64,000 bases of DNA, taken from assembly GCA_020696385.1 (NCBI GenBank), contig JAEHCQ010000002.1, forward strand, positions 64,001-128,000. Reading direction: 5' to 3'. How positions within the stretch are numbered: the first letter of the stretch is position 1; every line of letters begins with the position of its first letter. Below are positions 22,810 to 59,640 of the stretch, piece by piece. Made by a program: the position numbers and the translations under genes. The stretch is from Methanobacteriota archaeon. Lineage in GTDB: Archaea > Thermoplasmatota > Thermoplasmata > SG8-5 > JAGLSY01. Below the pieces are notes generated by a model. That model was not told where the DNA came from. It saw only the letters and a list, made by a program, of their open reading frames with translations, and did not search any database.

Positions 22810-22822
22810 TCTTATCTGAATG

Positions 22823-23170
22823 CTAGAGGTTATAGATAACTATTCCTAAGAATATAGCCATCAATCCTACTAATCTATATTTGGTTAAGTTCTCCTTATA
22901 GAAGATATAAGCACCCATAACGACAAAAACATAATTTAAACCTGTAAAGGAAAAGGCAACCCCCAATTCCATTCTACTCAATGCTAGCAAATAAAAGATT
23001 GGAGCGATTAAAATCACAAATGCCCCCATGATGATATATTTATTAAGCATACCTTTAATGACCAAACTAACTTTTTTATCATCTGGAATAAGTCCCGCTC
23101 CCTTTTTTATAAGAAGCTGAGCGGTCACAGTTAAAGCCACCATTATAAGGATATAAGCATATTCAATCAT
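22823..23170 (-). CDS. SMR/EamA small membrane protein, ArnE/ArnF-like lipid-sugar flippase subunit
   Basis: Four TM segments; AQLL.KKG, LS..ELG.AF, F.E motif. Confidence 0.75.
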   Translation of the reverse strand: MIEYAYILIMVALTVTAQLLIKKGAGLIPDDKKVSLVIKGMLNKYIIMGAFVILIAPIFYLLALSRMELGVAFSFTGLNYVFVVMGAYIFYKENLTKYRLVGLMAIFLGIVIYNL

Positions 23171-25440: not shown

Positions 25441-25468
25441 TTTATCCCCCAGTACTTAATATCTTATA

Positions 25469-26188: not shown

Positions 26189-26194
26189 AAGGAT

Positions 26195-27283: not shown

Positions 27284-27351
27284 GAATATCATGAGTAGAA
27301 ATCTTTGTGCATATAAAATGTTTACCCAAGCATTGTTCTCTGAAGATGGTA

Positions 27352-29001: not shown

Positions 29002-29013
29002 CAGTTATTCCTC

Positions 29014-29949
29014 CTATGCGACATTTACATCTATCCACAGATGGATCTCTCTATATACAGTTGGGTCATCATCCTTATATAATTCCATGGTGAGTTTATA
29101 TTGGCCTGCATAGTCTATCTGAAATGCAAAGAAGGTCTCATTAATCTGTTCATGCTCTAAGGCTATGTCATAGGAAGATAGTGTAATATTCTGTCTTTGA
29201 CCAGTGGTGTTAAGCAGACTGATAATTATTATATAGTTTGTTGATTCATACTCATGACAAACTGTCCCTATGGTTATTGTTTTAGTCTCATTAGTTGTCA
29301 TATTTAAAGGAAGATCAGTAATTCCCCTATTTTGATCCAATACATAGAACTCTGTAAAATTCTCCCCCTCCAATGGATTGGTCAAAACATATGCCAGTGT
29401 AAACCCACTGATTATCAAAGAGATCACCAGAACAATGGCTATGAACTTGTCTTCTGGTTCTTCAGCATTTTGGAATATATTTATCTTCTCCACAGGCATT
29501 GTGAAACGATCTGCCTCGGGGATCAGAGATCGTCTGTACCAGCCCATACCACATACAAAAACTATAAAAATTATCAAAAAGGCCAGAATGGGCTTAAGGG
29601 ATATCTCAGAAATGAAATTCAAGATTATACCAATAAATGCCAATATAACTATGCTCAATCCGAAACTCAATACGATCCTTTCAATTACCTTTATTCCGCG
29701 GGTGTTGGTCTCATTTCCCTTGCTATTTTCAGCTTCATACACTGTGTGATTTTCAGGCCATAAAAATGAAACAAAGGCATATCCTGGGAAAAAAATAACA
29801 ATTGGCAAAGCAAATATGATACGTATGAGATTACCACCAGGTAATAAAATGATGGAAATAGCAGAAACTAAAGACAATATAATTACTATTATCAAATCCA
29901 GGGGATAAGTGTTCTTTTTGATAATTGCAGGGATGTTAACAGGCTCCAT
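29014..29949 (-). CDS. DUF1616-domain membrane protein
   Basis: F.PGYA....LWP, ERIVLSFGLSI, E.FTEFYVL, YRE.HLWI.V. Confidence 0.85.
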   Translation of the reverse strand: MEPVNIPAIIKKNTYPLDLIIVIILSLVSAISIILLPGGNLIRIIFALPIVIFFPGYAFVSFLWPENHTVYEAENSKGNETNTRGIKVIERIVLSFGLSIVILAFIGIILNFISEISLKPILAFLIIFIVFVCGMGWYRRSLIPEADRFTMPVEKINIFQNAEEPEDKFIAIVLVISLIISGFTLAYVLTNPLEGENFTEFYVLDQNRGITDLPLNMTTNETKTITIGTVCHEYESTNYIIIISLLNTTGQRQNITLSSYDIALEHEQINETFFAFQIDYAGQYKLTMELYKDDDPTVYREIHLWIDVNVA

Positions 29950-44838: not shown

Positions 44839-47124
44839 ATGGTAGAGGAAAGCCAGCCTATTAGTGATACGAAAGTCGAGGTCAAATTGAAGAGAGACCT
44901 CGGTCTCTTCAGTATTTTGATGATCGGGCTTGGGCCGACACTTGGTTCCACCATCTTTCTTCTTGTAGGATTTGGCCTTGAGATCGCAGGACCTGGGCTT
45001 GTGCTTGTTTTTGTCCTGAACTTCATTGTCACGGTCTTCACAGCCATGGCCTATGCCGAGCTCAGTAGTGCCTTCCCTGATACTGGAGGAGGGTATCTGT
45101 GGGTGAAGGAAGGAATGCCACAACCTATTGGTTTCCTGGCGGGCTGGATGTCCTGGTTCGGGCATTGTATCGTGACAAGTTTCTACGTCTTTGGTTTTGG
45201 AAAAGGAGTTATGTGGATACTGGAGGCTAATGAGATCGCCATACCCTTTGACGCAGACCTTCTTGTGAAATCATTGGCAGTCGCAGTGTGTTTGGTCTTC
45301 ATTTTGATCAACTACAGAGGGACAAAAGAAACTGGTAAATCCAGTATCTATATCACACTTGTTCTCATCGTCATTATATCCATATTCATCATTTCTGGAA
45401 TTATCTACATAATTCTAAATCCTGGAGCGCATGGAGGGGATGTGACCTCGGTCGTCAGCAATCCGATACCAAATGGCTGGGGTTCTATCCTGATAGCCAT
45501 GGGATTCACATTCATTGTTTTCGAGGGTTATGAGATAATCTCTCAATGTGGAGAGGAATGTATCGATCCTCTCAAAAATGTGCCAAAGGCAAGCTGGCTA
45601 TGTATCATCATATCCACCATCATCTTCGTCCTGGTGGCCGCTGTTTGTACAGGGGTGATTGACTGGACGACCATCGGGCACACGGTTGCAGGAGATGATG
45701 TTGTGGCCCACGTGGCAGACATCACTATTCCCAAATACGGTATACTTCTGGTAGCCACAGGTGTTATCCTCGGAACACTGGCAGCTATCAACTCCACCTT
45801 ATTTTCATCATCCAGGGTGTCATACGCCATGGGTCGTGATGGAGCCCTTCCTGATGCCTTTGGCACACTCAGTAAAAAGAAGAACACGCCTCATGTGGCC
45901 ATATTCACCAGTGGAGCCATCGTCATAATGATGACATTGTTCCTCCCAATCGAGGATATCGCAGCTTCGGCCGATATCATGTTCCTTCTGCTCTTCTTCT
46001 TCGTGAACCTGGCTGCCATCACTCTCAGGTATAAAAGACCGGATATCAAACGGCATTATATGATGCCATTCTTCCCATGGGTCCCGATAATCGGTATTGG
46101 AACTAAATTTGTTCTGGCCATAGGATTGTGGTGGGAGTTCCCCATGGCCTGGGTAATTGCCGTCGTGTGGATCGAGATCGGCCTGATGGCCTTCTATCTG
46201 TATGGTGGAAAGGAGAAGATCGAGAAGACCGATCACCCGGATGAAGTAGCTGAAAGGGCAAGCAAAAAGAAGGGAAAGAAATACAAGATCCTGGTACCTG
46301 TTACAAGCGATGAGCAGAGATCTCTTGTTAAGTTCGCCGCCCTGGTCGCCAGAGTGGAGAATGCGGAGATATACCTGGTTAAGGTGATCGAGCAGGCAAA
46401 GGGTGAGCCCGTGGATTCGATGGCCTATAAAGAACTGGCACCTCATATCAAGGTAGTGGACAAGCTGAAGAAGATACTTGACAGAGAGCAGATAAAATGC
46501 CACAGTAAAGTCCTGATCTCCAGGCTGGCTTCCGATGCGATACTGGATCTCATAAATGAAGAAAAGATAGATCTGACGATAATCGGATGGAGAGGACAGA
46601 CAAAGCCTGGTCAGATCTTTGGACACAATATTGATGAAATGGTCCAGAAGGCGAACAGTGATGTCATCGTGTTCAAATCCAAAGAGATGAGCAAGGAAGT
46701 GAAGAAGATACTCGTGGTCTCCACCCCCGAGTGGCATTCCAGTTATGCGACCAATTATTCGATTCTTATCGCGAAACAGGATTATTCCCACATCACGATA
46801 TTCAGCGCAAGCGCGACCGAGGCTAAAAGAATTGAGGAAGACAAGTATGCGGACAAATTGACGCAGTTATGCCACATTCATGATGTCGAGTATACGAAGA
46901 AGGTCATCATGGTCGATAATATCGAGGATGCCATAGTGAAAGAAGCCGCTGATCATGACCTGGTTGTCTTCGGAGCCGCAGAAGAATGGACATTGAAGAA
47001 GTATGCCTTTGGCAGTATGCAGGACAGGATGGCGAAAAGTATACAGAAGCCAATACTCATGGTGAGGAAGATCACACAAAGATCCAACATATCGGATGAT
47101 CCAGTATCTGATAAAGAGGATTAG
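44839..47124 (+). CDS. APC-family amino acid permease fused to two universal stress protein (USP) domains
   Basis: LKRDLGL, AYAELSSAFP..GGGY, FEGYE, SRV..AMGRDG.LP; USP motifs KILVP, DL.IIGWRG, KILV, DLVVFGA. Confidence 0.92.
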   Translation: MVEESQPISDTKVEVKLKRDLGLFSILMIGLGPTLGSTIFLLVGFGLEIAGPGLVLVFVLNFIVTVFTAMAYAELSSAFPDTGGGYLWVKEGMPQPIGFLAGWMSWFGHCIVTSFYVFGFGKGVMWILEANEIAIPFDADLLVKSLAVAVCLVFILINYRGTKETGKSSIYITLVLIVIISIFIISGIIYIILNPGAHGGDVTSVVSNPIPNGWGSILIAMGFTFIVFEGYEIISQCGEECIDPLKNVPKASWLCIIISTIIFVLVAAVCTGVIDWTTIGHTVAGDDVVAHVADITIPKYGILLVATGVILGTLAAINSTLFSSSRVSYAMGRDGALPDAFGTLSKKKNTPHVAIFTSGAIVIMMTLFLPIEDIAASADIMFLLLFFFVNLAAITLRYKRPDIKRHYMMPFFPWVPIIGIGTKFVLAIGLWWEFPMAWVIAVVWIEIGLMAFYLYGGKEKIEKTDHPDEVAERASKKKGKKYKILVPVTSDEQRSLVKFAALVARVENAEIYLVKVIEQAKGEPVDSMAYKELAPHIKVVDKLKKILDREQIKCHSKVLISRLASDAILDLINEEKIDLTIIGWRGQTKPGQIFGHNIDEMVQKANSDVIVFKSKEMSKEVKKILVVSTPEWHSSYATNYSILIAKQDYSHITIFSASATEAKRIEEDKYADKLTQLCHIHDVEYTKKVIMVDNIEDAIVKEAADHDLVVFGAAEEWTLKKYAFGSMQDRMAKSIQKPILMVRKITQRSNISDDPVSDKED

Positions 47125-47163: not shown

Positions 47164-48531
47164 TCAGTTGAAGGATGATAGTGCTATTCCATCCTTCTTC
47201 AATCTCTCATGGATGGCTTTGATAATCTCAGAGCGTACTATATCACCCTGTGATGGATCTAAAACCCAGGCATTGACACGGTAGATCGATGTATCCTTTG
47301 ATATGGACAATAATCGGATAGTGATTGGATATTTCGGATCCTGGCCAGAAACACCTGCAGAGGAAGCTGTGATTACATCCTCAATAACCTTGAATTCCAC
47401 CTCGGAGCTTATTGGGATATCTATGTCCAGTCTAAGACCATCTACTGTAGTGAAGTTGTGAATGGTGGAGTCCATGACCTTATTGTTTGGAATGTCCATG
47501 AAATCACCGAAATTGGTCCTCACCCTTGTGAAGATCAGGTGCTGTTCGACTACCTCTCCAACATCCTCATCACCCAATTTGACCCAATCTCCCTTGTTTA
47601 TACTGTCTGTAAGCAGAAGGATAATTCCAGATATCGCATTTTTCATACCTGGTGATGTTCCGATAATTAGTAAGATGCTGATAGTTAATCCTATTATGAC
47701 AAAGACAACAAGTTCCAAATGTGGGAATCTCAGAATATCCAGGATGATCATAAGGGTGACGACAAAGGCCAGCCAATAAAGCAAATACCTGATCAAGGTC
47801 CTCACCAGATCAATAAGCTTGTTGGGGATCTTCGTGGGCTTGGATTTGAAATCATCCAGCATCATCGATGTAAGTTTTCCTACCAGGTATAGCACTACGA
47901 GAATAGTGATAAGGGAAAGAACCTCCTGCAAAAGCAGAGAGCCATCCATTCCAGCGAATCCCATTACATTGAATATCTGGTCCCTGACTTCTTGGTTCGG
48001 GGTGGTCAGCAGACCTACCAGAAATGCTATGACTATTCCAAAGAACAATAATATGTATTTCACAAAGCCTTGTGCGAAATCCAAGATACCGGATTTCATC
48101 ATCGCGTCAGGATCTTGCTTGGCCTCTGCTCCTTTTATGGATATCCACACTGAGCTTAACTGAGCAAGCAACAGGAAGCTGAAAAAGGTCACTCCCGCCA
48201 TCAATATGAAGATATAATCAAGGGTGAATTCAAAAAGCGTGATGAAAATATCGATATCCAACATCGCGCCAGCATAAAGAATGGATATCAGGATGAAGAT
48301 TATACTCATCACCCTTACAGCCGAGAATACAGAGTCCAGTGTTCGATCATCCACATAGGTTCTCTCTTTCAATTTGAGGAAACTTATGTATCTCGATAGA
48401 TGAGAGAATATGAAAAGTAATACCGTGAATAGGACTATCCCTATTACCACTAGGAGCGCGTAATCTTCCGGCCCTGCTTCATTCATGATGCCGGTCATTA
48501 TTTTCGAACTGCTTGCCAACATGTTATCCAC
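47164..48531 (-). CDS. MscS-family mechanosensitive channel with extra N-terminal TMs
   Basis: NAISGIILL....GDWV.LG...G.V, IPN.K....I.NF. Confidence 0.85.
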   Translation of the reverse strand: MDNMLASSSKIMTGIMNEAGPEDYALLVVIGIVLFTVLLFIFSHLSRYISFLKLKERTYVDDRTLDSVFSAVRVMSIIFILISILYAGAMLDIDIFITLFEFTLDYIFILMAGVTFFSFLLLAQLSSVWISIKGAEAKQDPDAMMKSGILDFAQGFVKYILLFFGIVIAFLVGLLTTPNQEVRDQIFNVMGFAGMDGSLLLQEVLSLITILVVLYLVGKLTSMMLDDFKSKPTKIPNKLIDLVRTLIRYLLYWLAFVVTLMIILDILRFPHLELVVFVIIGLTISILLIIGTSPGMKNAISGIILLLTDSINKGDWVKLGDEDVGEVVEQHLIFTRVRTNFGDFMDIPNNKVMDSTIHNFTTVDGLRLDIDIPISSEVEFKVIEDVITASSAGVSGQDPKYPITIRLLSISKDTSIYRVNAWVLDPSQGDIVRSEIIKAIHERLKKDGIALSSFN

Positions 48532-48593: not shown

Positions 48594-51500
48594 TTACTGG
48601 GATAGGGATACTTTCCTCTTCCTACGAACAATACTGAATATGACCATTGGCATGAAGATGACAAATGCGAATGTGCTGTATTCGGATATGATTATGACCA
48701 TCGTGCCAGATGCGAACATCACCCATGTTATTCCGGCATTGGTATTACTGCCTGCTGTGTAATGAGGTGCACCGATCAGGACATCGTTCTTGCTATTACC
48801 ATCCAGGTCGCCCACCTTACACACGGACCAACCGAAATGAGAACTGGCATTGTATGAATAGTTGACATAATCCGCATTGGAGGCACTGATGGTACTGGCC
48901 ATGGTGGCAGAGCCATTGAAAATATACACCGCTCCTTTTCCACTACTGTAATACGGTGCTCCGACGATGACGTCGTCATATGTGTCGCCATTGAAGTCAT
49001 CCAGACCATGGACGGAGTAGCCGAATTTGTCGCCTGAGGATTCGCCTGTAATTGTGACATTGGCCGAGGCAGGGCAATAATACTCGATAGAAATACTATG
49101 TAAAACAGGGGTGGCAGAACCATTTCCATTCATCTCCACTTTGTATCTGAGCTGGCTTCCGGCTGGTTCTCCATTGCTAAATGAATATTCGGAGCCAGAA
49201 GTCAAAGACGGGCTGTAGGTGGTACCTCCATCCCTGGAGACTTTGACTGTCATGGTTTGGCTATTAAGAGTCGCACTCCATGTGGGTGTTACCGATCCGA
49301 CATAATCACCTGCTGTATATGTGTCTGATTCCACATATCCATACGTGTCCACGATATATGTGCTAAGTTTAACATTATCAAGATAGGCCACGGTCGCAGC
49401 TGTTCCAGTTTGGAAAGTAATTATTCCAACATCAACATCATTTATCAGTTCAGCACCGGTTGCTCTGGAGACACCATCAATATAAATGTCATATACAGAT
49501 GGCGTTGCCGAGCAATCAACATCAAGCTGGAAATGATACCATTGATTAGCATTATATGTCTGCAATACCTGAATAGCGCCATCGTAGTATATTATTGTGC
49601 CATCAGTGTAAAACAACATTTGTATGCCAGCTGTATAATCAGACTCTGGTCCAAGAATCTGGAACCAGCCAGTTGTTGTGGTGACACGAGCATCAAATTC
49701 TATAGTGAATGTTGTTGAAAGAGGCATGGACGTCTTGGTAATGTTCACCCTATCAGTGGTGTCTGTGAATTTGACACTGTTATATCCGGAAACACTTTGA
49801 TCATCACTTACTTCAATGGAGCCGCCGGTTTCAGTCACTGTCCATCCACCAGGGTCATCTGAGATTGTTTGAGCATCGAAGTTCTGTGGATTGGTCAAAT
49901 TTACATCCCCAGCGGAAACAGCAAATGTACTGTTGAGGTCTCCGGTATTGAAATCTGCCTGAGTGGTGTTTGATATAGTGCTGGAAGTGAGTCCCATAAT
50001 TGGACTTCCGTAATAGATATAGGCATTTCCATTCGCGGTCCCTGGTGAGCCTATGATGACATCGTCATTTCCATTATTATCAACATCTCCAGCATCAGCC
50101 ACGGACCATCCGAAATGTGTTTTGATAGACGCGCCAGAGACTCTGAGGTACATGTGATCAATGTATACTGTGTCGAGATTAGAATCACTAGTGGATGCAT
50201 CAATCACACCGATATAGAGTGTACCTGTAAAGGCATCCAATGTAGCATCTGAGAAAGATTGGTAAGAATCATCATCGCTTGTTTTTGTGACATCTAACAT
50301 TTTTGTCCAGGAGCTGACGAGACCACTTCCTGTTGTGGAATAGTAAAACTCCATATTCTCTGAATCCTGATTGGTTCTATTGGCCTCCAGATAGAATCTA
50401 GTATCAGTTCCAGTAGTAATACCGGCCATGGTCCATTTATGTTCCAATCTAGTTGAAGCGACCGTTAAGGTGGTGTTCACGCACATATAGTCGATTTCCA
50501 GAGTATCTGCCTGGCTGCCATCAGTAGAGACATTGTCAACAACACCCACATAAAATGCCCCTCCAATGAATCCATCCGCGTCAAGGTCGAATGTGTAGGT
50601 TGTCTGTGCCTGGGCATCGACCGAGAACATGTATGTCCATGCGGCAGTTCCGACATCTCCAGAATTTGTTTCAGCATAATAGAACATGAACTCATCATCC
50701 GGTGTGCCTCCAGAATCCCAGCCAGCGCGAAGCTGGAATTCGTACTGTAGCGCAGAAGATGGGATCGTTGTAAATGTCCATTTGTGCTCGAGGCTGTAGT
50801 GAGATGGGATTGTAACAGACATCGTTACATTTACATCATCCAACCAAACAGCTTCCCCATTTGAACCATGTGCACGCCACTGGATCTGGAAAGCACTATG
50901 CAGATATTGTGAATCGGTTATCGTCTCTTGATAGTTATACCAAGTATCCTCAGTAGATTGCAGGGTTGCCAAATCCTCTATGAGATCCCAAGTTCCAGTG
51001 TTATCATAGTAATAGAGTCCATATTCAGTTGCATCTGCATCATCTTCGCGCCACCAGAAGTCAACAGTGATACTGGTTGCAGATGCTGTATCCATTGATG
51101 GTGATTGAAGGGTACCAGATACACCTGCACCAGTGGAGCCATCAAAATCCGCAGAGTACGTACCGGTATTTGCATAATCGGTTTCCGGGTTCCAAGCCGT
51201 TCCTGCGGCTTCGGTCCAATCGGCGGGCCAAGAGGTACTCTCAAAGCTCTCTGTGGGGATCAAAGTAATAGTACTGATCCCGCCAGTCACCAGTGCCTCT
51301 ACAATGTCCTGTGTTGTACCATCCAGATTCGCCGTTTCTGTATAATCATTCACATTGGATCCAGTATTTGATTGGTTGTAGGTTTCAGATGTGGCAAAAT
51401 CCTCATCATAGGTCGCAGCTGCGCTGACCTCGGTTATGCTCTCATAGCCATCATTCTGGGTCTGGGTACTAGTATGTGTGTTCGTCACTGTTCCAGTATC

Positions 51501-54500
51501 AGCGATGTCCGCTCCTGTGGTGAAATCTGTGGATGCAAATTGAGGTATTCCAGCGATCACCTTGTATGGCGTTGATACAAAGTACATGTGATCCACATAT
51601 AGGGTATCATTGACCGTATTACCCGTGCTCCTATCCGCATCAATGACCCCCACATAGACAATTCCAGAAAGGCCAGATAATGTATCATCTGTGTAAGATT
51701 GATATGAACCATCGTCAGTTGTCTTTGTCACTGTGACCATCTTGGTCCAACCAGAGGAGCCTACTGTCCCAGTGCCAGCTGTGGAATAATAGAATTCGAA
51801 ATTATCTCCTTCTGTATTGGAGGTGTGGTTTGCCTCAAGGTAGAATGTATTCTGTGATTTGGATGTCAAAGATATGTTCCATTTATGCTCCAGACTACTT
51901 ACTTTCGGAACATAGGTCACCACTACATCATCTACATAAGCATCTTCATTGAGAGAGGTTCTGTATAGATAGAAGCGTATTGCCAGATTTGGATTGTCAT
52001 TGGCAGAAGCTGGCAGGAGGAAAGATTTATCCGCATAGGCTAAATCTCCAGTTAGTTCTTCAAGTATGACATAGCCAGACCCGACGTCATACTCTGCTCT
52101 GAAATAATCCACTCCCGAATCCAGCCCATTTGTGGCAACGGAATAAGATAAAGTTATACTGTCTTTTCCAGTTGAATCTATTGTTCTGGCGATCGAATTT
52201 GTAGTCACTGAATTCGCGCTTCCCAGATCGCAAGAATAAGTACCTGTATTAACATTCTCAGTACTGGCAAGAGGATCGCCAACAACAGTCCAGCCACCGG
52301 TTGTCAGATCGCCACTTTCAAATCCGTCACTGAAGAATGATGTTCCGCCTCCAGATCCTCCACCCCAAATCTCTTCGATCTCCTCATACCCATCATTACT
52401 GGATTGGGTGCTTGTGTATGTGTTGGTGAGAGTTCCACTAACTGACCAATCAGTGTCCGCGGTCTCACTTGTGGGTAAGCTGAACACATAGGCCTTCTCG
52501 TTCCCAGGCTCCCCGACTATGACCTCGCTTCCAGCACTTCCATCAGTATTTCCTGCTGTGGAAACCGAGAAGCCGAAATTACCATTGGACACAGTTCCGT
52601 TCAATGATACATCTGCTGTTGCGGCTGTAGTTGGTATACTGCCATCACCGTAGAATATGTATGCTTTACCCTTGCCGGAATTGGCATATGGCGCGCCCAC
52701 TATGACATCTGAATTTCCTGAATTGTCATAGTTGCCAGCACCACTCACGCTCGCTCCAAAATCATCACCACTGGCCGCCCCTGTCAGTGTGACATTCGCG
52801 CTCGTAGTTCCTAGGTCCCAACTGCCATCACCGGTAACCTCCTCCCAGTTGAGACCCTTTCCATAGAATATGTACGCATTGCCATTTGTCGTATCTGGCG
52901 CGCCCACTATAATATCATCAAAACCATCATTATCCACATCACCAGCATCGCTCACATCCCAACCAAAATGATCACCAGATGCAGCGCCTGTTATAGTGAC
53001 ATTGGCGAATGCCGCCTGCATGTAATTGCTATTCGATGTGTTGAAACCGTAATATCCAAAGAATACGTAAGCGCGACCTTCATTACCACTGGCACCAGGA
53101 GCTCCCACCACCACATCCGGGTAATTGTCATTATTTACATCTCCAGCATATGAGACATTCCATCCAAATAGATCACTGGCCGCTGATCCATTACCAGATG
53201 TGACCTCGGCCAACTGTAGCATATCCCCGGCCATTGGGGAATCAGATTCTGATCCGGATCGAGTAGCTGGTAGTGTCAGAGGAGTGTCTTCCTCCGTGGC
53301 TGTATCCGAATTCTCATTCCAGGAGATCGTCTCGAAGCTGGCAGATATATCACCCGTAGTCTGTATATCCAGCATGACCTCCAATTGTTTTGAATCATAT
53401 TGGAAATCAGGCATTGTGATCTCGGTCCAGTCCCATTCTCCCTGTGATCGGCCTGTGAACTCCCTGGTCGATGATGATTTTATATCACCATATTTGCCAG
53501 TGAATTCAATTACGTAATCCACACCCAGTCCAGAGCGTGAGTATCCCGTGGTCGTGTCATTGTCCGCATCAACATATATAATGGATCGATCATAGCCATT
53601 CAATGCCGGCACGGGGTCTTCTGGACCTATGTATCTGGTCACCTTGGTATCCTCATTATAGAGTTCTTCGTCAGTTCCACCAGCATTGTAGTCGATCTCA
53701 CCATCACCATCATCATCATTGGAATCCGTATCCAATATGCCATCATTGTTGAAATCGAATTCATAGCCCGGTTCATACTGATCCAATATGCCATCACCAT
53801 CACTATCCACCTGAGAAGGAGTTGTTGATGGAGGTGGAGGTGTGGAAGAAGGTGCCCTGGTACTGGCTGTTATAGGAACACTGGCCCCTCCCATGAAATC
53901 GCCATTTGTCCTTAAGTAAAAGGCTAATTTGGAGCCATCATTGTATGCTCCATATTTACTGATATCGATGGAAGGATTTGAGCCAGTAGTGGGTTCTTCT
54001 ATCTCATCATTCGAGGATGAGGACCAGTCACTGAAACCTCCATCTATCATCACCCCGATCGGAACAACATCAATGTATCCCAGATCATGACTTGAGGAGC
54101 CCGTAGTAAGTGATGCAATCCCTCCAGTCACTGATATCCCTGCGGAGCTGGTTATCTGTGCCCCTATTGTGGTTCCAGAGCCGGCAGATGCAGAAATGTC
54201 CACAGCGACCGTGAAGCTCTGTGTTTGTCCCGCGGGTATGGTGATACCGCCCATATTCAGGTTTATAGTGGATGATAATTGTGAGGTCTCGGCTACGGAA
54301 CTACCCGCACTGTTCAATACCCTGGCCGAAGTTATGGATGATAATGGGGCCGTGCCCTTGAAAGCGATCTGTATGGATTCCAGAACAGCATCTATTTCCG
54401 TCGCTGTAGCATCAAAGCCGAGAAGTGACTGGCCTGCACCGGAGAGTGTCTCCGAACACACACTTCGCTGGTCTATACTAAGAATAGCCAGGGAATTACT

Positions 54501-57221
54501 GACTAGATGATCTGATTTGTCATGATATCCATCATATGATTGTGAATGTACTGCGACCGTGACTGGGCCTGGATCCACCATGTCCAAAGCGGACCAGGCT
54601 ATTTGAGTCTCGACAGTCTGATCCTGTGATCGGGAAACTATGTTACCAACAGAAGTGTAACCATGCCAATCATCATTGTCACTGCCTCTGAATGTGTATA
54701 ACTGGGATCCGACAACATTTCCATTCCAGCCTTTGATCTCCAGCATGAAATCAGCTCCCATTCCTTCGAACATGTAGCCGGTTGTATGATCCTGATCTGT
54801 ATCTAGGAACAGGTGGAACACGTCCATAAGACCAGCATCAGTGACAGGCTCCCCAGCCATTATCTGGCCATTATCAACCACACTGATATGGAAAGAAAGG
54901 TATTTGTCATCATTATTTTCCACAGCAACGCCGACAATATCGATATTTGGATTGAAATCCACACCCTCTGATTGGGATGTTGTCTCGGCGACTCCTTCCC
55001 AATCGGAGAATTCTCCATCAATGACTATGCTGTCTGCTTCGACTGGGGGTGGTGAAAAGGACACCATCGGTATGAGCAGAAGAAGAACAGCGACCAGAGG
55101 GATGATGTATAGTTTCCATTTATTTCGACGAGCCTCACGATTGAACCTGGCCCCTCCTAAACCATTGGTCATTCCGGTCCCATTTGTAAGGCCATTGGTC
55201 ATACCATTTCGTAGTGTCCGGAGACCATTCGTAAGGCCATTGGTGACACCAGTCCCATTTGTGACACCGTTTGTAAGTCCATTGGTTATTCCATTTGTAA
55301 GACCGTTGGTCATGCCATTAGTGCGACCAAGACCATTTGTAAGGCCGTTGGTCATGCCATTAGTGCGACCAAGACCATTTGTAAGGCCGTTGGTCATGCC
55401 ATTAGTGCGACCAAGACCATTTGTAAGGCCGTTGGTCATGCCATTAGTGCGACCAAGACCATTTGTAAGGCCGTTGGTCATGCCATTAGTGCGGCCAAGA
55501 CCATTTGTAAGGCCGTTGGTCATGCCATTAGTGCGACCAAGACCGTTTGTAAGGCCGTTGGTGACACCATTGGTCATACCGTTGGTTCTTCCCTGACTAC
55601 CTTTAGCCAGACCATTTGTCAAGCCTTTACGGACGCCGTTGGTCATGCCCCTATCCTTCGCCACAGGTGGTTGGGATCGGAGTGGTTTGGTAACGGATTC
55701 TATCTTTCTTGCATCGTCCTCAGAGATAGGCTCTGGCTTGTGAGGCATAGCCTCCGCACCCTCTGAGAAGAGATGAGCCAGTTCATCTATCGCCGCTTCA
55801 TCATCCTCAGATATATCTGGAGCAGGAGCCTTGAAAGCCTCTGGCTCTGAATCTAGAGGCTTTACTGTTGATTCGATCAATCCGATCTCATCATCATCCA
55901 GATCCAGGGAATCCAGATCTTCGGAGAGATCAAGATCTAATGAATCCAGCTTATTCGTTATGCTATCCAGAATATCTGATTCTTCATCAGATACCTCATG
56001 GATATGACCGGGCATATCCATGTCTTTATCATCCAGATCCAAAATATCGTTCTGGATCTGCCTCTGCTTTGCCAGCCAGACCTCCTTATCCACCTCGGTG
56101 TCATCCTCTACGGATTCCAACTCGAGGAGCAGGTCTTCCATTTCATCATCGGTTTCAGTAATGGCTGTTGTCACACCAAGCTCCATCGCCCTTTTGTAGC
56201 AAGATGCGGCTTTCTTATGTTCGCCCATTTGTGTGAAGACCTCGGCCTTCATATTCCAGACCCCGGGATAATTGGCATCCAATCTGGTGATCTCATTCAG
56301 GGCCTCGATAGCCTCCTCGTTCCTTTCCATTTTTGACAATACTTCGCCTTTCAGGAACCATTGCTCGATATCCGAAGGATCTGATCGGATCCTGTCCTCG
56401 ATATCATTTAATTGTAAAGTGAGGTCATCATCAATAGCACTTTCTGCCTCATCCTTGAACTTCATACCACATTGATAGCATACATTGTCCCCTTTTTCCA
56501 ATATCGTGCTACATAATGGACAGGCGAACTCCTCGACGGCTTCTTCTATATGCAATTCATCAATGACTGGCTGGCCGATACCCTCAGACTTCTCATCCAG
56601 TGTGACGATTATCTTGATCTTCTGGGCGGATTTAAGGGCTATACCTTCGACAGATAATAGCTCCTCCACACTCGCATCTCTCAGATCATCCACAGTTCTG
56701 AATCCTGCATCGTAGAGAGCCTTGGCCTTTAGAGATCCCAACCCTGGTACGGTTGTCAATAATTGAATGGCCTTGGTCTGTCGCTGCCTGCTGGGGTTTT
56801 CCAATTCCTCGACCTGCATCTGCTCCAGTATCTCATTCACGCTTTCTTTTGATCCCAGAATACTATTGAGCGGGTGGTCTTTATCGGGGATTGCATTTTT
56901 AAGATTATTAAGAAGAAGGTCACTGGCACTATCAAAATTACCAGTTCCAGCCTGGGCTCTGGCAATATTCAAAGTAAGTCCAGGAGTACTTGGAGCCAGA
57001 TCTTTGACTCTGTTAAAGCATTTGATCGCATCTTGATCCTTGCCAAGTGATAAAAGGGTCTCTCCATAAGCCATCCACAGCCTTGGATTATTGGGATTGG
57101 AATTGAGTAGTCTCTTTTGTCTTTCCAAAAGTGACTCACCTACTTTGGCAGGCTTGGAATCTGAGGCTTTTCCCCATTTGGAGATGAAGTCCTCTGTGAA
57201 CCGTTTCTTATCTGGCGCCAT
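48594..57221 (-). CDS. Giant (~2,875 aa) membrane-spanning protein: TPR, HhH, Zn ribbon, TPR, (xTNG)n, TM, extracellular beta domains, Ca-binding Dx[DN]xDG motifs, 7 FG-GAP blades, PEF-CTERM-like tail
   Basis: Motifs read from the translation; ATG 57221 has a GGAG RBS. Confidence 0.9.
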   Translation of the reverse strand: MAPDKKRFTEDFISKWGKASDSKPAKVGESLLERQKRLLNSNPNNPRLWMAYGETLLSLGKDQDAIKCFNRVKDLAPSTPGLTLNIARAQAGTGNFDSASDLLLNNLKNAIPDKDHPLNSILGSKESVNEILEQMQVEELENPSRQRQTKAIQLLTTVPGLGSLKAKALYDAGFRTVDDLRDASVEELLSVEGIALKSAQKIKIIVTLDEKSEGIGQPVIDELHIEEAVEEFACPLCSTILEKGDNVCYQCGMKFKDEAESAIDDDLTLQLNDIEDRIRSDPSDIEQWFLKGEVLSKMERNEEAIEALNEITRLDANYPGVWNMKAEVFTQMGEHKKAASCYKRAMELGVTTAITETDDEMEDLLLELESVEDDTEVDKEVWLAKQRQIQNDILDLDDKDMDMPGHIHEVSDEESDILDSITNKLDSLDLDLSEDLDSLDLDDDEIGLIESTVKPLDSEPEAFKAPAPDISEDDEAAIDELAHLFSEGAEAMPHKPEPISEDDARKIESVTKPLRSQPPVAKDRGMTNGVRKGLTNGLAKGSQGRTNGMTNGVTNGLTNGLGRTNGMTNGLTNGLGRTNGMTNGLTNGLGRTNGMTNGLTNGLGRTNGMTNGLTNGLGRTNGMTNGLTNGLGRTNGMTNGLTNGITNGLTNGVTNGTGVTNGLTNGLRTLRNGMTNGLTNGTGMTNGLGGARFNREARRNKWKLYIIPLVAVLLLLIPMVSFSPPPVEADSIVIDGEFSDWEGVAETTSQSEGVDFNPNIDIVGVAVENNDDKYLSFHISVVDNGQIMAGEPVTDAGLMDVFHLFLDTDQDHTTGYMFEGMGADFMLEIKGWNGNVVGSQLYTFRGSDNDDWHGYTSVGNIVSRSQDQTVETQIAWSALDMVDPGPVTVAVHSQSYDGYHDKSDHLVSNSLAILSIDQRSVCSETLSGAGQSLLGFDATATEIDAVLESIQIAFKGTAPLSSITSARVLNSAGSSVAETSQLSSTINLNMGGITIPAGQTQSFTVAVDISASAGSGTTIGAQITSSAGISVTGGIASLTTGSSSHDLGYIDVVPIGVMIDGGFSDWSSSSNDEIEEPTTGSNPSIDISKYGAYNDGSKLAFYLRTNGDFMGGASVPITASTRAPSSTPPPPSTTPSQVDSDGDGILDQYEPGYEFDFNNDGILDTDSNDDDGDGEIDYNAGGTDEELYNEDTKVTRYIGPEDPVPALNGYDRSIIYVDADNDTTTGYSRSGLGVDYVIEFTGKYGDIKSSSTREFTGRSQGEWDWTEITMPDFQYDSKQLEVMLDIQTTGDISASFETISWNENSDTATEEDTPLTLPATRSGSESDSPMAGDMLQLAEVTSGNGSAASDLFGWNVSYAGDVNNDNYPDVVVGAPGASGNEGRAYVFFGYYGFNTSNSNYMQAAFANVTITGAASGDHFGWDVSDAGDVDNDGFDDIIVGAPDTTNGNAYIFYGKGLNWEEVTGDGSWDLGTTSANVTLTGAASGDDFGASVSGAGNYDNSGNSDVIVGAPYANSGKGKAYIFYGDGSIPTTAATADVSLNGTVSNGNFGFSVSTAGNTDGSAGSEVIVGEPGNEKAYVFSLPTSETADTDWSVSGTLTNTYTSTQSSNDGYEEIEEIWGGGSGGGTSFFSDGFESGDLTTGGWTVVGDPLASTENVNTGTYSCDLGSANSVTTNSIARTIDSTGKDSITLSYSVATNGLDSGVDYFRAEYDVGSGYVILEELTGDLAYADKSFLLPASANDNPNLAIRFYLYRTSLNEDAYVDDVVVTYVPKVSSLEHKWNISLTSKSQNTFYLEANHTSNTEGDNFEFYYSTAGTGTVGSSGWTKMVTVTKTTDDGSYQSYTDDTLSGLSGIVYVGVIDADRSTGNTVNDTLYVDHMYFVSTPYKVIAGIPQFASTDFTTGADIADTGTVTNTHTSTQTQNDGYESITEVSAAATYDEDFATSETYNQSNTGSNVNDYTETANLDGTTQDIVEALVTGGISTITLIPTESFESTSWPADWTEAAGTAWNPETDYANTGTYSADFDGSTGAGVSGTLQSPSMDTASATSITVDFWWREDDADATEYGLYYYDNTGTWDLIEDLATLQSTEDTWYNYQETITDSQYLHSAFQIQWRAHGSNGEAVWLDDVNVTMSVTIPSHYSLEHKWTFTTIPSSALQYEFQLRAGWDSGGTPDDEFMFYYAETNSGDVGTAAWTYMFSVDAQAQTTYTFDLDADGFIGGAFYVGVVDNVSTDGSQADTLEIDYMCVNTTLTVASTRLEHKWTMAGITTGTDTRFYLEANRTNQDSENMEFYYSTTGSGLVSSWTKMLDVTKTSDDDSYQSFSDATLDAFTGTLYIGVIDASTSDSNLDTVYIDHMYLRVSGASIKTHFGWSVADAGDVDNNGNDDVIIGSPGTANGNAYIYYGSPIMGLTSSTISNTTQADFNTGDLNSTFAVSAGDVNLTNPQNFDAQTISDDPGGWTVTETGGSIEVSDDQSVSGYNSVKFTDTTDRVNITKTSMPLSTTFTIEFDARVTTTTGWFQILGPESDYTAGIQMLFYTDGTIIYYDGAIQVLQTYNANQWYHFQLDVDCSATPSVYDIYIDGVSRATGAELINDVDVGIITFQTGTAATVAYLDNVKLSTYIVDTYGYVESDTYTAGDYVGSVTPTWSATLNSQTMTVKVSRDGGTTYSPSLTSGSEYSFSNGEPAGSQLRYKVEMNGNGSATPVLHSISIEYYCPASANVTITGESSGDKFGYSVHGLDDFNGDTYDDVIVGAPYYSSGKGAVYIFNGSATMASTISASNADYVNYSYNASSHFGWSVCKVGDLDGNSKNDVLIGAPHYTAGSNTNAGITWVMFASGTMVIIISEYSTFAFVIFMPMVIFSIVRRKRKVSLSQ
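55291..55562 (-). repeat. Coding tandem repeat: six near-identical 42-bp units plus a partial unit (GLGRTNGMTNGLTN)
   Basis: Unit ccatttgtaaggccgttggtcatgccattagtgcgaccaaga starts at 55291, 55333, 55375, 55417, 55459 and 55501. Confidence 0.95.
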
Positions 57222-57406
57222 GGTCTCCCTAAATCCCTTTCTATACAAATTGGTAAATACAGTAACTGCCCAGGTTTATACTTACCATTATTGCATAAAC
57301 AACAATTAATTAGAATGCGAGGGGTATATATGAATGTTCTATGTAAAAATATACAACCACTGTATTATAGTATAGTTAGTATATTACAAAATAGTTTTAA
57401 CGATAA

Positions 57407-58114
57407 TTAGACCAGTGCTCTTTCGATCGGATGATAAGGAATCTCCAAACGCTCTTGAGCATTACCAATATTTATTGTGATAACAAGTCCCCTGCCCTTT
57501 ATCTCCTTGATCTCGGGTTTGAGATGCTCGGCCTCCATCCTTTTTATGAGGCTGGCCCTGAAAGATTTTAGATTTGATCTTTCAGTCTTTGACAATTCCT
57601 TTATCTTGCTTGTCGGGTAATACCTCAAATGTCTTCCATCCTTCAGCACGGATATCAGACCAGAATCTTCCAATCGATCGAGTACGGACCTCGAGCAGAT
57701 CTTATCCCCCATGGCCAATTTCAATTCCCCAGTGCTTGATCCAGGTTCCTTGATTATCTGCTTGAAGACAATATTGTGTGAAAGATCATTTAATAGGCTT
57801 ATAGCTCTTTTCGAATCATCCTCTTTCAGCATGCCAGTTGGAAAATACACGGCCTTGTTGAAAAAAACCTTGCTCTTCACATATTCCCTCTCCTCGAGAA
57901 CATCCAGATGCCATATCACGGTCGGCCTGGAAAGTGAAAGTTCTGAAGAAATGCGGGAAATACTGATGCATGGTGTCAGGCATAGAAGCTGAAATATATC
58001 CTTCCGATTAGAATTCGAGATCACACTGGCCTTTCTTCGGGACCTTGTGTCTTCCTCCTTATCCGGGAGCTTGTCCTCCACCACCCTTTTCAATGCATCT
58101 CCTATCTTTTCCAT
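57407..58114 (-). CDS. Double winged-HTH transcriptional regulator (ArsR-like)
   Basis: NR..IF..L...P......IS..L.LS..TV.WHL..L; second wHTH EPG....EL.....L.RL...GLI...KDGR..RYYP. Confidence 0.85.
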   Translation of the reverse strand: MEKIGDALKRVVEDKLPDKEEDTRSRRKASVISNSNRKDIFQLLCLTPCISISRISSELSLSRPTVIWHLDVLEEREYVKSKVFFNKAVYFPTGMLKEDDSKRAISLLNDLSHNIVFKQIIKEPGSSTGELKLAMGDKICSRSVLDRLEDSGLISVLKDGRHLRYYPTSKIKELSKTERSNLKSFRASLIKRMEAEHLKPEIKEIKGRGLVITINIGNAQERLEIPYHPIERALV

Positions 58115-58124: not shown

Positions 58125-59048
58125 CTAATTCTCATCTATCAGTTCATATTCTGATAGTATCTGTGTCAGTATATACTCGGGATCCAGATGGCCGATATCC
58201 TCCTGGGATATTTTATTGATGGTCCTTATTAGGCTCTGTCTGACCTTGGGAGTTAGCTTTGCCCTTTTTTCTTTTGGTAATTGCTCAAATATCCCATTCA
58301 ACAATGAGGTCATGTCCACGACATTTTTGGGAACTTGACTGGCAAGCTTGGCCTTTTGAGCGATTATGCCACTTCCTCTAACGATAGTGTATGGGTGCCA
58401 GAATCTGCTGTGCTTGCTACTTCGGCACTTGATTATCTTCATCTCTCTTTTTTCCGGGCTGTCATGACTTCTGTATCTGAGATGAATGACATTATCAGCC
58501 AGATACATCGGAATTACCAATTCTGGACCTGACAGGTCACCAACAACACCGTGTTCTTCCAGGGTGCACACCACTGTTCCAATATTTCTCGTTCCTCTGA
58601 GAAGTGAGGAAACTAAGTCCCTTTGCTCATATTTGTCCTCAGTGGACCAGAGCACGGGCGTGAGAGGATCGATGACTATCCTGGCATTGTATCCTTTCCA
58701 TTCATCAACAAAGCCTGCCAGTTCTGTCTTGATAAAATCCGAGAACTCACGACCTCCAGCATCGACGAAGATCAGCATTCCCTTATCGATATAATCTTCA
58801 ACATCTTCCCAACCCATCTCTATCACGCCTTTGATGATCTGCTTCGGGCTCTCGTCCAGGGTGATGAAGATAGCATCCTCTCCCAGTTCCAGACCTCGCT
58901 TCAGGAAATAAGTTGCGAAAGTGGTCTTTCCAGCACCAGAAGTACCAATAACCGCAGTTATCGTATTCTCATTAATACCCCCATCCATCAGACTGTTCAG
59001 TCCATAAACACCGCTCTTGATCTTTTTCAAAGGTATGTGGCTCACCAC
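58125..59048 (-). CDS. KaiC-like (RAD55-family) ATPase with C-terminal helical extension
   Basis: SGVYGL..L.DGGI, GTSGAGKTT, ITLDE, IVIDP, TLEE, YLADNVIHL, IKCR. Confidence 0.9.
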   Translation of the reverse strand: MVSHIPLKKIKSGVYGLNSLMDGGINENTITAVIGTSGAGKTTFATYFLKRGLELGEDAIFITLDESPKQIIKGVIEMGWEDVEDYIDKGMLIFVDAGGREFSDFIKTELAGFVDEWKGYNARIVIDPLTPVLWSTEDKYEQRDLVSSLLRGTRNIGTVVCTLEEHGVVGDLSGPELVIPMYLADNVIHLRYRSHDSPEKREMKIIKCRSSKHSRFWHPYTIVRGSGIIAQKAKLASQVPKNVVDMTSLLNGIFEQLPKEKRAKLTPKVRQSLIRTINKISQEDIGHLDPEYILTQILSEYELIDEN

Positions 59049-59257
59049 CCAAGGGAATCCAATTTCTTTTCCTTCTTCGTGGCCTTCTTAAATTCCTTGT
59101 AGTGTTCCTTGCAGATCTTGACCTTGCTACCACTGCCAGTCAGACTGTGGTTAAGTTCTTTATCCACCTTCTTCCTTGATAAGGATCGGGCTGATTCGTT
59201 CTTGCAGTTGGAGACCTCGCACATGACGATCTCATCTGCTTTTCTTTCTTTGGCCAT
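59042..59257 (-). CDS. Small basic Zn-binding protein
   Basis: C.V..C....RSLS ... CKEHYKE.KK; overlaps the KaiC start. Confidence 0.75.
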   Translation of the reverse strand: MAKERKADEIVMCEVSNCKNESARSLSRKKVDKELNHSLTGSGSKVKICKEHYKEFKKATKKEKKLDSLGW

Positions 59258-59365
59258 GGTATTCTTTAATCATGTATGGATATTAAAATGTATCGAAGAT
59301 AATTAGAGGCGAATACGATGGCCAAAGATTAAGAACCCGCCATCGTGTTTAGGATTTCAGAAAGA

Positions 59366-59500
59366 TTGATCTCCCCGCCCATCGTTGAACTCCTGACGGG
59401 GCTTCAAATCTCAGAGCACTCTGTATTTGTCACTCGCTGGGTCATCGAATATAGTACCCCGCCCTGATGAATGCTCTATGAATCATCCAGACGGGGCATG
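59366..59500 (-). repeat. Non-coding two-hairpin repeat module B, copy 2
   Basis: Minus strand: catgccccgtctggatga...cagggcggggtactatattcg...agtgaca...gaagccccgtc...gggcggggagatcaa. Confidence 0.8.
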
Positions 59501-59544
59501 CTTGAATGCAAATGCCTTGCAGAGATTCAGATCAGTTTTATCCA

Positions 59545-59608
59545 ACCCAGCTTGACAAGCTATTCTCCCATCAAGGGTGGGTCTCAGTATTTTCTCAGTA
59601 TGGTGGGG
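59545..59608 (+). repeat. Non-coding repeat module A, copy 2
   Basis: 55/64 identical to 43849-43912. Confidence 0.85.
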
Positions 59609-59640
59609 ATCGGAAGAAGGGCACGGTCATAGTTTATGAT

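Follow-up and report, generated by a model that had tools for sequence, protein, structure and literature searches.

A 64,000-nucleotide stretch from a Methanobacteriota archaeon assigned to the Thermoplasmatota (the window; contig JAEHCQ010000002.1, from a genome of 2.28 Mb that is 94% complete) raises the question of what one very large minus-strand gene, at 48594-57221, does at the end of a cassette that also encodes a KaiC-like ATPase and a winged-helix-turn-helix (wHTH) regulator. An interpretation made earlier from the nucleotide letters alone (the sequence-only reading) had seen in it a giant transmembrane (TM) receptor or adhesin coupling surface binding to cytoplasmic signalling. Our analysis favors a related view, to which we give about an even chance: the protein would be a member of a large and unnamed family, found in uncultured Thermoplasmatota, whose giant surface proteins have an anchor at each end and signal from outside in, through KaiC, to the wHTH regulator.

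The receptor is encoded by one uninterrupted minus-strand frame (57248..48594), which yields 2,884 aa from a TTG codon and 2,875 aa from the ATG at 57221, with the stop codon at 48594-48596. Since the 12 orthologs that we aligned all open with the shared motif M-x(2-4)-KRFTEDFxxKW, we place the start at this ATG, from which the N-terminus reads MAPDKKRFTEDF and 5 nt upstream of which lies a GGGAG ribosome-binding site. The single open reading frame (ORF) of 2,875 aa that the sequence-only reading had delimited thus stands. Residue numbers given here refer to the 2,884-aa translation from TTG (P0001). We consider it very improbable that this is not one functional protein, whether because the assembly was joined through a repeat or because the product is cut after the first TM helix (TM1) so that its halves act separately. 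Such a case could draw on a 98%-identical 42-bp tandem repeat located 70 nt before TM1 (6.5 copies, 55291-55562), of a kind that short-read assemblies often collapse, and on the sequence VEA|DS after TM1, which could be a signal-peptidase site. Nonetheless, the repeat unit corresponds to 14 codons, so that an error in copy number keeps the reading frame, and the residues after TM1 are not conserved as A-x-A among 10 aligned orthologs. Moreover, the same order of cytoplasmic module, NG repeats, TM helix and ectodomain core within a single ORF is found in all 50 receptors on contigs of metagenome-assembled genomes (MAGs), in 4 own paralogs and in 16 distant loci. In relatives, the cytoplasmic module, TM helix and core stay within one ORF and do not occur as separate, unlinked genes; the only split seen, in L021 of genome G004, lies inside the ectodomain. 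An artefactual origin of the long frame is therefore very unlikely.

With respect to topology, hydropathy analysis reveals exactly two membrane-type segments in the receptor. The first, TM1 (55056..55112, minus strand; residues 713-731, Kyte-Doolittle 2.64), follows the basic segment RFNREARRNKWK, and the second lies at residues ~2852-2874 and is followed by RRKRK. The orientation was judged from charge, sequon and domain-type indicators over the 50 MAG-locus receptors. Specifically, the 15 aa flanking TM1 carry on average 4.2 Lys plus Arg on the N-terminal side versus 0.64 on the C-terminal side, and N-x-S/T sequons number 0.16 per 100 aa before TM1 versus 1.61 after it (2 and 24 sequons, respectively, in the window protein). 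Domains of cytoplasmic kinds (TPR, helix-hairpin-helix (HhH) and Zn ribbon) precede TM1 and those of surface kinds follow it, NG repeats are almost wholly N-terminal of TM1, and the same single-chain layout was found in every relative examined. An N-in, ectodomain-out receptor is accordingly well supported by these indicators but not proven, and the cytoplasmic N-terminus proposed earlier from some 700 aa preceding an internal TM segment is borne out. A classical signal peptide was considered and rejected: the N-terminus lacks a hydrophobic stretch, 703 aa precede TM1, and the residues that follow it are not conserved as a cleavage site.

The receptor is the last of four genes on the same strand, preceded by a small Zn protein, KaiC and a tandem wHTH regulator, which confirms the placement made by the sequence-only reading. 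The first of these, a 71-aa basic Cys/His protein (C-x4-C ... C-x2-H; 59042..59257, minus strand) without a Pfam match, overlaps the start of the 307-aa KaiC-like ATPase (58125..59048, minus strand; PF06745, 5.9e-38), and the regulator is a 235-aa protein with tandem winged helices of ArsR/SmtB-like type (57407..58114, minus strand; HTH_24, 1.3e-8). The Walker A (GTSGAGKTT), TLDE and Walker B (RIVIDPLT) motifs of this KaiC are invariant in 12 orthologs. With a mean column identity of 81%, the stand-alone KaiC is far more conserved than the receptor, and with all of its catalytic motifs intact it looks active.

This arrangement recurs, along with the receptor architecture, in cassettes of uncultured Thermoplasmata, where a search of the Thermoplasmatota had been suggested. 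Scanning one genome per species with a KaiC alignment returned 80 loci, all of them from uncultured Thermoplasmata, Thermoplasmatota or 'Methanomassiliicoccales' MAGs. The wHTH gene follows KaiC in 71 of the 76 loci that could be assessed, and a core-bearing receptor follows KaiC in 47 of the 54 with at least 4 kb of room. Approached from the regulator, the wHTH family is present in 38 of 41 related genomes, mostly in several copies, and among 20 contexts around its matches KaiC lies directly upstream in 18 and a receptor downstream in 16. Two of these genomes, G004 and G021, share identical matches in the wHTH scan. One 46,715-bp contig with the same cassette (L042 and L043) likewise stands in two MAG records, one labelled Methanomassiliicoccales and the other Methanobacteriota. 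MAG counts therefore include duplicates, and since the relatives are not independent, our locus counts describe conservation and are not statistics.

Two types of cassette can be told apart. The window type encodes an extra N-terminal TPR, the KRFTEDF peptide (present at the receptor N-terminus in 17 loci of the TPR-first clade) and, where TM1 is in view, 11-34 TNG motifs; its KaiC proteins are 60-95% identical to that of the window, and 70-95% identical where the co-divergence of cassette parts was compared. The small Zn protein occurs in 15 of 73 loci, and both its gene and the KRFTEDF peptide are found only in this TPR-first type. Receptors of the second type start with HhH, carry 1-9 Zn ribbons and accompany a KaiC that is ~50% identical to the window's. 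Pfam detects HhH, Zn ribbon(s) and TPR in each of 8 variant cytoplasmic parts compared with it, and 49 of the 50 receptors show some match to the A1 hidden Markov model (HMM) of the cytoplasmic module, although counts of the separate domains by this model are insensitive, as it misses HhH domains found by Pfam and its TPR matches map to either block. Within the source genome, four proteins share NG repeats, a TM helix and the same core: the window gene itself (contig C22) and paralogs of 2,285 aa on C11, 1,457 aa on C33 and 1,798 aa on C44. The C11 paralog is preceded, in the same gene order, by a KaiC and a wHTH of its own (51% and 29% identical, respectively), and the C44 paralog has a different KaiC directly upstream and no wHTH. 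KaiC, wHTH and receptor have co-diverged as sets, with several cassettes per genome, a pattern that fits cognate sensor-regulator pairs.

A second line of evidence comes from proteins in which KaiC and receptor are fused. A search of 1.84 billion representatives with profile A2 gave 41,976 matches at E up to 1e-3 and 6,297 at E up to 1e-30, counts that we do not use as a family size because an FG-GAP blade left in the profile inflates them. From the 150 matches listed, we hand-picked 50 database relatives, not counting the window protein itself, in which the best-matching stretch spans the core; the remaining 99 match mainly FG-GAP columns. An N-terminal KaiC-like domain is present in 18 of these 50, and all 6 fused proteins tested by Pfam give a full-length PF06745 match (66-97 bits) together with weak MEDS and DUF7504 co-matches. 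Ten of 11 aligned fused domains have GPxGxEK[D/E/L] in place of the P-loop GxxGxGK[S/T], and in all 11 the TLDE/TLEE stretch is replaced, mostly by VLSS. One fused form is represented by 20 near-identical cluster members, each of the 15 listed lying on a separate contig; the fusion is therefore no assembly accident. The public names of the fused proteins are only 'FG-GAP repeat protein', 'ATPase domain-containing protein' and 'RAD55 family ATPase'. In two distant loci, DUF835 stands at the receptor N-terminus beside a stand-alone KaiC; MEDS and DUF835 are both labelled inactivated KaiC domains in parts of PMC5847659. We propose that receptor and KaiC are functionally coupled because a KaiC-like domain is fused to the receptor in some lineages and an active-looking KaiC adjoins it in others. 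This combination of fusion and adjacency is the strong evidence here, and the strongest that we have, that the two work together, as far as comparison of sequences can tell. As a separate observation, KaiC is followed by two receptors in tandem in two genomes of another class (L129 2098-9928 and L135 4722-12416): the first, of 1,329 and 1,388 aa, has an N-terminal DUF835 and matches only the first ~170 core positions at its C-terminal end, and the second, of 898 and 889 aa, has the rest of the architecture.

A predicted complex of KaiC, wHTH and receptor residues 1-381 counted from the ATG (the scored partner), with a 12-row alignment for each, lends weak support to their association. The interface score ipSAE was 0.40 (0.32, 0.40 and 0.41 in individual runs) versus 0.00 for the best of 3 controls, and it fell to 0.00 when KaiC was replaced and the wHTH kept. 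At least 41% of contacts are shared between runs, and the partner has a predicted local distance difference test score (pLDDT) of at least 64. In calibration, 58 of 80 solved complexes passed the mark, as did 2 of 110 mismatched pairs; just 7 of those complexes, but both of the mismatches, passed at an ipSAE of 0.60 or less. This calibration holds only roughly, because our own alignments and three chains were used.

In terms of mechanism, the ectodomain would bind an extracellular polymer or surface, and, as paralogs differ in their distal modules, each would have its own ligand. The HhH-Zn-ribbon-TPR platform would dock the KaiC-like ATPase at the membrane, where occupancy, clustering or tension of the ectodomain could alter the nucleotide, phosphorylation or oligomer state of KaiC, and KaiC would then control the wHTH regulator and hence transcription. 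KaiC-family ATPases are described in parts of PMC4858521 as switching partners with their phosphorylation state and as regulating halobacterial gas-vesicle expression. In a variant of this scheme, the cytoplasmic fragment would be freed by regulated proteolysis at TM1, in the manner of RsgI anti-sigma sensors. Should the C-terminal signal discussed below be processed by an exosortase/archaeosortase-family protein of the genome, the far end of the ectodomain would be tied to the membrane as well and the ectodomain would form a loop.

Several observations weigh against outside-in signalling through KaiC. The C33 paralog lacks both KaiC and wHTH upstream, no receptor accompanies KaiC and wHTH in 7 of the 54 loci, and KaiC adjoins only 4 of 16 distant core-bearing loci. 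Loci L039, L041, L042, L044, L047, L049, L051-L054 and L058 repeat contigs already seen as L019-L027, L030 and L036. Among the 50 database relatives, 7 have short tails, and the ectodomain can therefore exist without a signalling-type module. The fused KaiC-like domains look catalytically dead from their replaced motifs, and so could be structural adaptors instead of signalling parts. A complex score in the range obtained misleads more often than not, except where the association was already likely on other grounds, and it defines no interface. Finally, the likeness of the ectodomain core to folds of carbohydrate-binding modules (CBMs), described below, by itself identifies no ligand.

The cytoplasmic part that would receive KaiC opens with the peptide KRFTEDFxxKW (57174..57206, minus strand), which is invariant in 12 of 12 aligned orthologs and is a possible docking motif. 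It is followed on the same strand by TPR repeat 1 (56988..57086; residues 55-87), an HHH_5 HhH domain (56613..56765; residues 162-212, 3.7e-12), a Zn_ribbon_3 Zn ribbon (CPLC...CYQC; 56457..56531; residues 240-264) whose four Cys are invariant among aligned orthologs, and TPR repeats 2-3 (56178..56360; residues 297-357), all by Pfam. An acidic low-complexity linker with 27% Asp plus Glu (55569..56138, minus strand; residues 371-560) then leads to the TNG(L/M) repeat region that adjoins the membrane (55134..55568, minus strand; residues 561-705), the DNA of which forms the 42-bp tandem repeat. The NG-repeat track holds the same position before TM1 throughout the family, and a segment ...TNGLGxxRFxRE...WK is conserved just before TM1. 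The short cytoplasmic tails of the 7 database proteins mentioned above contain little but GNGLTNGNG-type repeats; since these are kept even there, the NG repeats are the most widespread cytoplasmic feature of the family. In the scans run, neither the NG-repeat motif, the N-terminal peptide nor the ectodomain core matched a Pfam family, and a word-index homolog search with the N-terminal module gave 12 matches (the protein itself, 2 giant relatives and 9 unrelated TPR proteins) with no useful name. A soluble 592-aa paralog of this module, without a TM helix, is encoded on C44 of the same genome (L004 5761-7539; G000:C44:155760-157538, minus strand). It comprises a double Zn ribbon, HhH, a further Zn ribbon and TPR, then an extended acidic region and a helical end; over 220 aa it shares 33% identity with the window protein.

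The same domains allow for a different role, in which the receptor is a nucleic-acid tether at the membrane: HhH and Zn ribbon would bind DNA and, with the KaiC-like ATPase of the RecA superfamily, anchor or process chromosomal, plasmid or incoming DNA, the ectodomain being merely an anchor or a contact to other cells. HHH_5 is indeed a DNA-binding type and is weakly like the N-terminal domain of RadA and the HhH of Hef and UvrC (NCBIfam E 8e-4 to 4e-3, all far below the cut-offs). Up to ~18 CxxC motifs occur in some cytoplasmic parts, and in one fused relative, P0036, KaiC is immediately followed by HhH, which recalls RadA in reversed domain order. (HhH)2-type domains, however, also mediate protein-protein contacts, the TPR and the conserved N-terminal peptide suggest protein docking, and family members without HhH exist. 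Nor was any nuclease, helicase or DNA-transport gene seen in the cassettes. We thus judge a tether role for HhH and Zn ribbons to be possible but quite improbable, and less likely than the structural role considered below.

Turning to the outer part of the receptor, the ectodomain spans ~2,115 aa and begins with a conserved core (53289..55031, minus strand) composed of a CBM9/DOMON-like sandwich (IDGEFSDW), a sialidase-CBM-like sandwich and a second IDGGFSDW domain, the last of which carries a DxDxDG/TSP3-like (thrombospondin-type) Ca-loop insert. The motifs that the sequence-only reading had listed for the ectodomain and its end (the IDG.FSDW pair, the DSDGDG-type Ca motifs, FG-GAP repeats and RRKRK) were all recovered, with IDGEFSDW at 743, IDGGFSDW at 1068 and DSDGDG/DFNNDG/DDDGDG at 1148-1178. 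The core itself (residues ~740-1320) has no Pfam match, and profile A5, the core without FG-GAP, reached at best an E of 0.077 against solved chains. An AlphaFold2 model of the core built from 10 sequences has a mean pLDDT of 63 and is mostly above 70 over model residues 10-345, with blocks mostly at 70-89 over residues 8-189. When compared with 48,161 chains by VIA-align, domain 1 (model residues 8-189) matches the CBM9 structure 1i82_A (Z 10.1, root-mean-square deviation (rmsd) 3.4, 147 aligned of 189), the starch-adherence protein Sas6 (7uwu_A, Z 11.8), the glucodextranase C-terminal domain (1ulv_A, Z 9.9) and DOMON-like subunits (Z 8.9-10.6; 2ivf_C, Z 10.6). Domain 2 (model residues 195-331) matches the N-terminal CBM of a sialidase (6mnj_A; Z 12.7, rmsd 2.4, 126 aligned). 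In this predicted structure, then, the core opens with a CBM9/DOMON-like beta-sandwich followed by a sialidase-CBM-like one. A Foldseek search of the PDB with the whole 670-aa core model returned TM-scores of 0.19 or less (sialidases, integrin alpha legs, RbmA, antigen I/II), at which no fold can be assigned, and an ESM Atlas search with the core gave no usable match.

When 301 genomes sampled evenly across the phylum were scanned with profile A5, 33 of them had the core, corresponding to 24 of 138 genera and including 14 of the 215 high-quality genomes, and several large families gave no match among their sampled members (0/36, 0/35, 0/24, 0/21 and 0/18). The proteins of the 16 distant loci all begin with a cytoplasmic part of 90-1,360 aa and have a TM helix ~25 aa ahead of the core; these cytoplasmic parts give weak TPR, HhH, Zn-ribbon or DUF835 matches, or nothing. 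Two further giant frames were noted in the source genome: one of >3,709 aa, which continues past the end of the retrieved sequence and has the first core domain in common (L005 4874-16000+; G000:C50), and a stop-to-stop frame of 8,676 codons that ends in a TM helix and basic tail (G000:C11:108577-134607, minus strand).

Beyond the core, Pfam finds FG-GAP (PF01839) in the window receptor at 1.6e-28 in 6 stretches, and seven motifs can be read at ~1361, 1428, 1497, 1560, 2379, 2742 and 2808, three of which fit the strict pattern. They are arranged as 4 + 1 + 2 with inserts of ~770 and 320 aa, all on the minus strand. Repeats 1-4 (52449..53186; residues ~1355-1600) are followed by insert 1 (50139..52448), which holds two copies of a ~170-aa module, each then followed by a ~110-aa LEHKW module, plus a third LEHKW and a sub-threshold choice-of-anchor-J match at residues 2281-2365. 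Repeat 5 (50004..50138, read in translation) is separated by insert 2 (49044..50003), with a Sialidase-like CBM match (PF22585, residues 2507-2620), from repeats 6-7 (48714..49043, from Pfam and translation). The last repeat abuts the C-terminal anchor, which suggests that the seven may form one split propeller near the membrane. AlphaFold2 modelling of the C-terminal 746 aa of the shortest ortholog, which cover the FG-GAP region, gave a mean pLDDT of 41.4 and an unusable model.

The sequence-only reading had described this ectodomain as integrin-alpha-like, a description that comparison with relatives limits to an added part of it. The resemblance lies in the seven FG-GAP repeats, the DxDxDG-type Ca loops and the large modules inserted between repeats, as well as in single-pass membrane attachment and a cytoplasmic part with adaptor-type (TPR) domains; Foldseek also lists integrin alpha chains for the core model, at TM-scores of 0.13 or less. 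In contrast to integrin alpha, however, the receptor is oriented the opposite way, with ~700 aa of N-terminal cytoplasmic part and a C-terminal tail of 10 aa, and no beta subunit was seen, though none was searched for. Among the loci tested, FG-GAP is confined to the clade of the window, yet it is also present in the KaiC-fused database relative P0027. Minimal family members have Lamin-tail and DUF11 domains in its place, and others carry Kelch/PKD, BNR/sortilin-like or further modules distal to the core. FG-GAP is thus a clade-specific addition and 'integrin-like' only an analogy; true integrin homology was rejected, since the type I orientation is lacking and FG-GAP is missing from minimal members. 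In one relative (L021), the part from FG-GAP onward is a separate, signal-bearing protein of 2,163 aa adjoining a 1,401-aa core receptor, which confirms the core as the unit and the remainder as an add-on.

As for the far end of the protein, the second TM with RRKRK reported by the sequence-only reading does exist as a hydrophobic segment, but it aligns with a sorting signal of PEF-CTERM type and may be a processing signal instead of a plain anchor. This element (ISEYS, hydrophobic helix and RRKRK; 48597..48713, minus strand) matches in position the IPEF, TM helix and R/K (PEF-CTERM-like) of relatives, which end in (I/V/A)PE(F/L/Y), a hydrophobic helix and an R/K cluster. The tail of one relative (L084) scores 23.4 bits with TIGR03024 versus a cut-off of 23, and weak matches to related archaeal CTERM models were seen for other tails. 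Paralogs on C11, C33 and C48 of the same genome carry PEF, which parallels known systems, as do two matches over the cut-off to the exosortase/archaeosortase family PF09721 (C50:13670-13960 and C22:18664-19320). The window protein and its closest relative, unlike these, have SEY (ISEYS) at the position of PEF, and the window tail matches neither TIGR03024 at E up to 10 nor any CTERM model. Known PEF-CTERM/archaeosortase substrates carry an N-terminal signal peptide, whereas the receptor has a 700-aa cytoplasmic domain with a TM anchor at its N-terminus. From the alignment of tails, the second TM is most likely an archaeosortase-type sorting signal that may be degenerate in the window protein.

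An ectodomain and an anchor of this sort bring up the main rival to signalling, namely that the receptor mainly has a structural role in the envelope or in adhesion, as a scaffold of glycocalyx or adhesin type with both of its ends fixed to the membrane. KaiC would then act from the inside out in its assembly, positioning, turnover or quality control, somewhat as the KaiC-like ArlH does at the archaellum motor, the wHTH would autoregulate the operon, and no external signal would be involved. The ectodomain is large, modular and rich in sequons, with adhesin-type domains (FG-GAP, DUF11 and Lamin-tail, and Kelch/PKD in paralogs), PEF-CTERM-like anchors are typical of surface proteins, and a glycan-biosynthesis island lies within the same window. 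The short-tailed members and the apparently inactive fused KaiC-like domains point the same way, and the window KaiC matches ArlH (NF052589) weakly and below threshold (30.4 bits vs a cut-off of 215). On the other hand, a dedicated DNA-binding regulator accompanies KaiC and receptor in nearly all assessable loci (71/76), the divergence of several paralogous cassettes per genome as sets is the pattern of cognate sensors and regulators and not of one structural protein, and the stand-alone KaiC keeps all of its catalytic motifs and is far better conserved than the receptor. On balance we find the structural role somewhat unlikely, although it is compatible with signalling and the two are not mutually exclusive.

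Outside-in signalling through KaiC, the reading we prefer, can be set beside several known systems. KaiC-like ATPases have been proposed, in parts of PMC5847659, as a central archaeal signal-transduction hub. The window cassette resembles that scheme in its single-domain KaiC ATPase beside a wHTH and a putative input protein: the operon holds an ATPase with an intact P-loop, and its linkage to the input and to an HTH output is conserved. Family members in which degenerate KaiC-like or DUF835 domains are fused to the membrane receptor add to the likeness. The input partner differs: it is a giant surface protein of bitopic type, with an ectodomain core of CBM type and an end that resembles PEF-CTERM. 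In the gas-vesicle system, GvpD acts on the activator GvpE, and we know of no membrane receptor there. The KaiCs of own paralogs give weak GvpD_P-loop matches, and the regulator of the window cassette differs in being a tandem ArsR-like wHTH. Common to both is a KaiC-family ATPase involved in regulating gene expression, which parts of PMC4858521 describe for gas vesicles.

A further comparison is with RsgI of Clostridium thermocellum, described in parts of PMC10328401, PMC12203970 and PMC6852018 as a bitopic protein with external CBMs and several paralogs, the N-terminal fragment of which is freed by intramembrane proteolysis. Both are N-in bitopic proteins with multiple paralogs per genome that differ in their sensor modules; in RsgI, as far as these sources describe it, the N-terminal cytoplasmic part acts on a transcription factor and the extracellular CBMs sense polymers. 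No RsgI/anti-sigma or periplasmic autoproteolytic family is among the 25 Pfam families listed of 28 (E up to 0.1). The receptor further differs in that its archaeal host is without sigma factors, its partner is a KaiC-like ATPase with a wHTH, and it has a second, C-terminal anchor, so that the likeness to RsgI is a functional analogy only. ToxR and CadC are bitopic one-component regulators with an N-terminal cytoplasmic domain of nucleic-acid-binding type, one TM helix and an external sensor. The window receptor follows the same order of N-terminal nucleic-acid-binding-type domain, TM and external part; it differs in that the wHTH is encoded as a protein of its own, HhH, Zn ribbon and TPR make up the cytoplasmic domain, and a KaiC-like ATPase is involved.

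KaiC hubs, sensor fusions of inactivated KaiC, PEF-CTERM, FG-GAP, CBM9 and TPR are all known parts. Their combination here, a giant double-anchored receptor as KaiC partner or fusion host with a new core, an NG track and a dedicated wHTH, has no description that we found in the literature searched, the scope of which did not extend to supplementary neighbourhood tables. The ectodomain core, the membrane-adjoining NG-repeat motif and the N-terminal peptide are newly defined. The family is a concrete, testable candidate for an input to the proposed archaeal KaiC hub. It may also shape how abundant uncultured Thermoplasmatota of sediment and soil attach to and sense particles, polymers and other cells, and core-bearing genomes often hold several copies with different outer modules. 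A bolder extension, which we hold to be doubtful, is that the cassettes constitute a distinct class of archaeal transmembrane signalling, in which a giant receptor for adhesion and glycan binding would use its HhH-Zn-ribbon-TPR platform and NG-repeat track to recruit a hexameric KaiC as transducer, with the tandem-wHTH protein as output. Active and inactivated KaiC would be swapped between separate and fused states, signalling would be bidirectional as in integrins, and the NG repeats would serve in docking to KaiC or the membrane. If true, the proposed network of KaiC hubs would gain in this protein its first concrete input receptor.

Some further features of the window and of the C44 locus may be recorded. 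A low-GC stretch at 19479-29949 (34-36% vs 40-50% elsewhere) contains glycan-biosynthesis genes: a DegT/DnrJ aminotransferase, a family-2 glycosyltransferase, a GDP-mannose 4,6-dehydratase-like epimerase and DUF1616. Three further ORFs in it, 309-732 aa long, match no Pfam family. This island may supply glycans for sequon-rich surface proteins. On C44, convergent to the receptor there, lies a gene for a protein of 1,191 aa that starts with double Zn ribbons, continues with some six TM helices and ends in TPRs (L003 7911-11486, minus strand; G000:C44). A further KaiC-family gene (L003 11629-12381, plus strand) adjoins it, making this a second kind of KaiC-linked membrane protein within one genome.

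Upstream of the window cassette, a gap of 380 nt (59258-59640) has no long ORF and includes an 11-nt inverted repeat (59312-59322/59339-59349, 91% complementary) some 55-90 nt before the start of the Zn-protein gene. A repeat search in two upstream gaps found short imperfect inverted repeats only and no motif common to both, and Rfam and tRNA scans of the window returned nothing. Directly downstream of the receptor, genes for an MscS-type mechanosensitive channel and for an amino-acid permease fused to two universal-stress-protein domains occupy 44839-47124 (plus strand) and 47164-48531 (minus strand). In a close relative (G002), a 762-aa multi-TM ORF occupies the place that matches this downstream flank.

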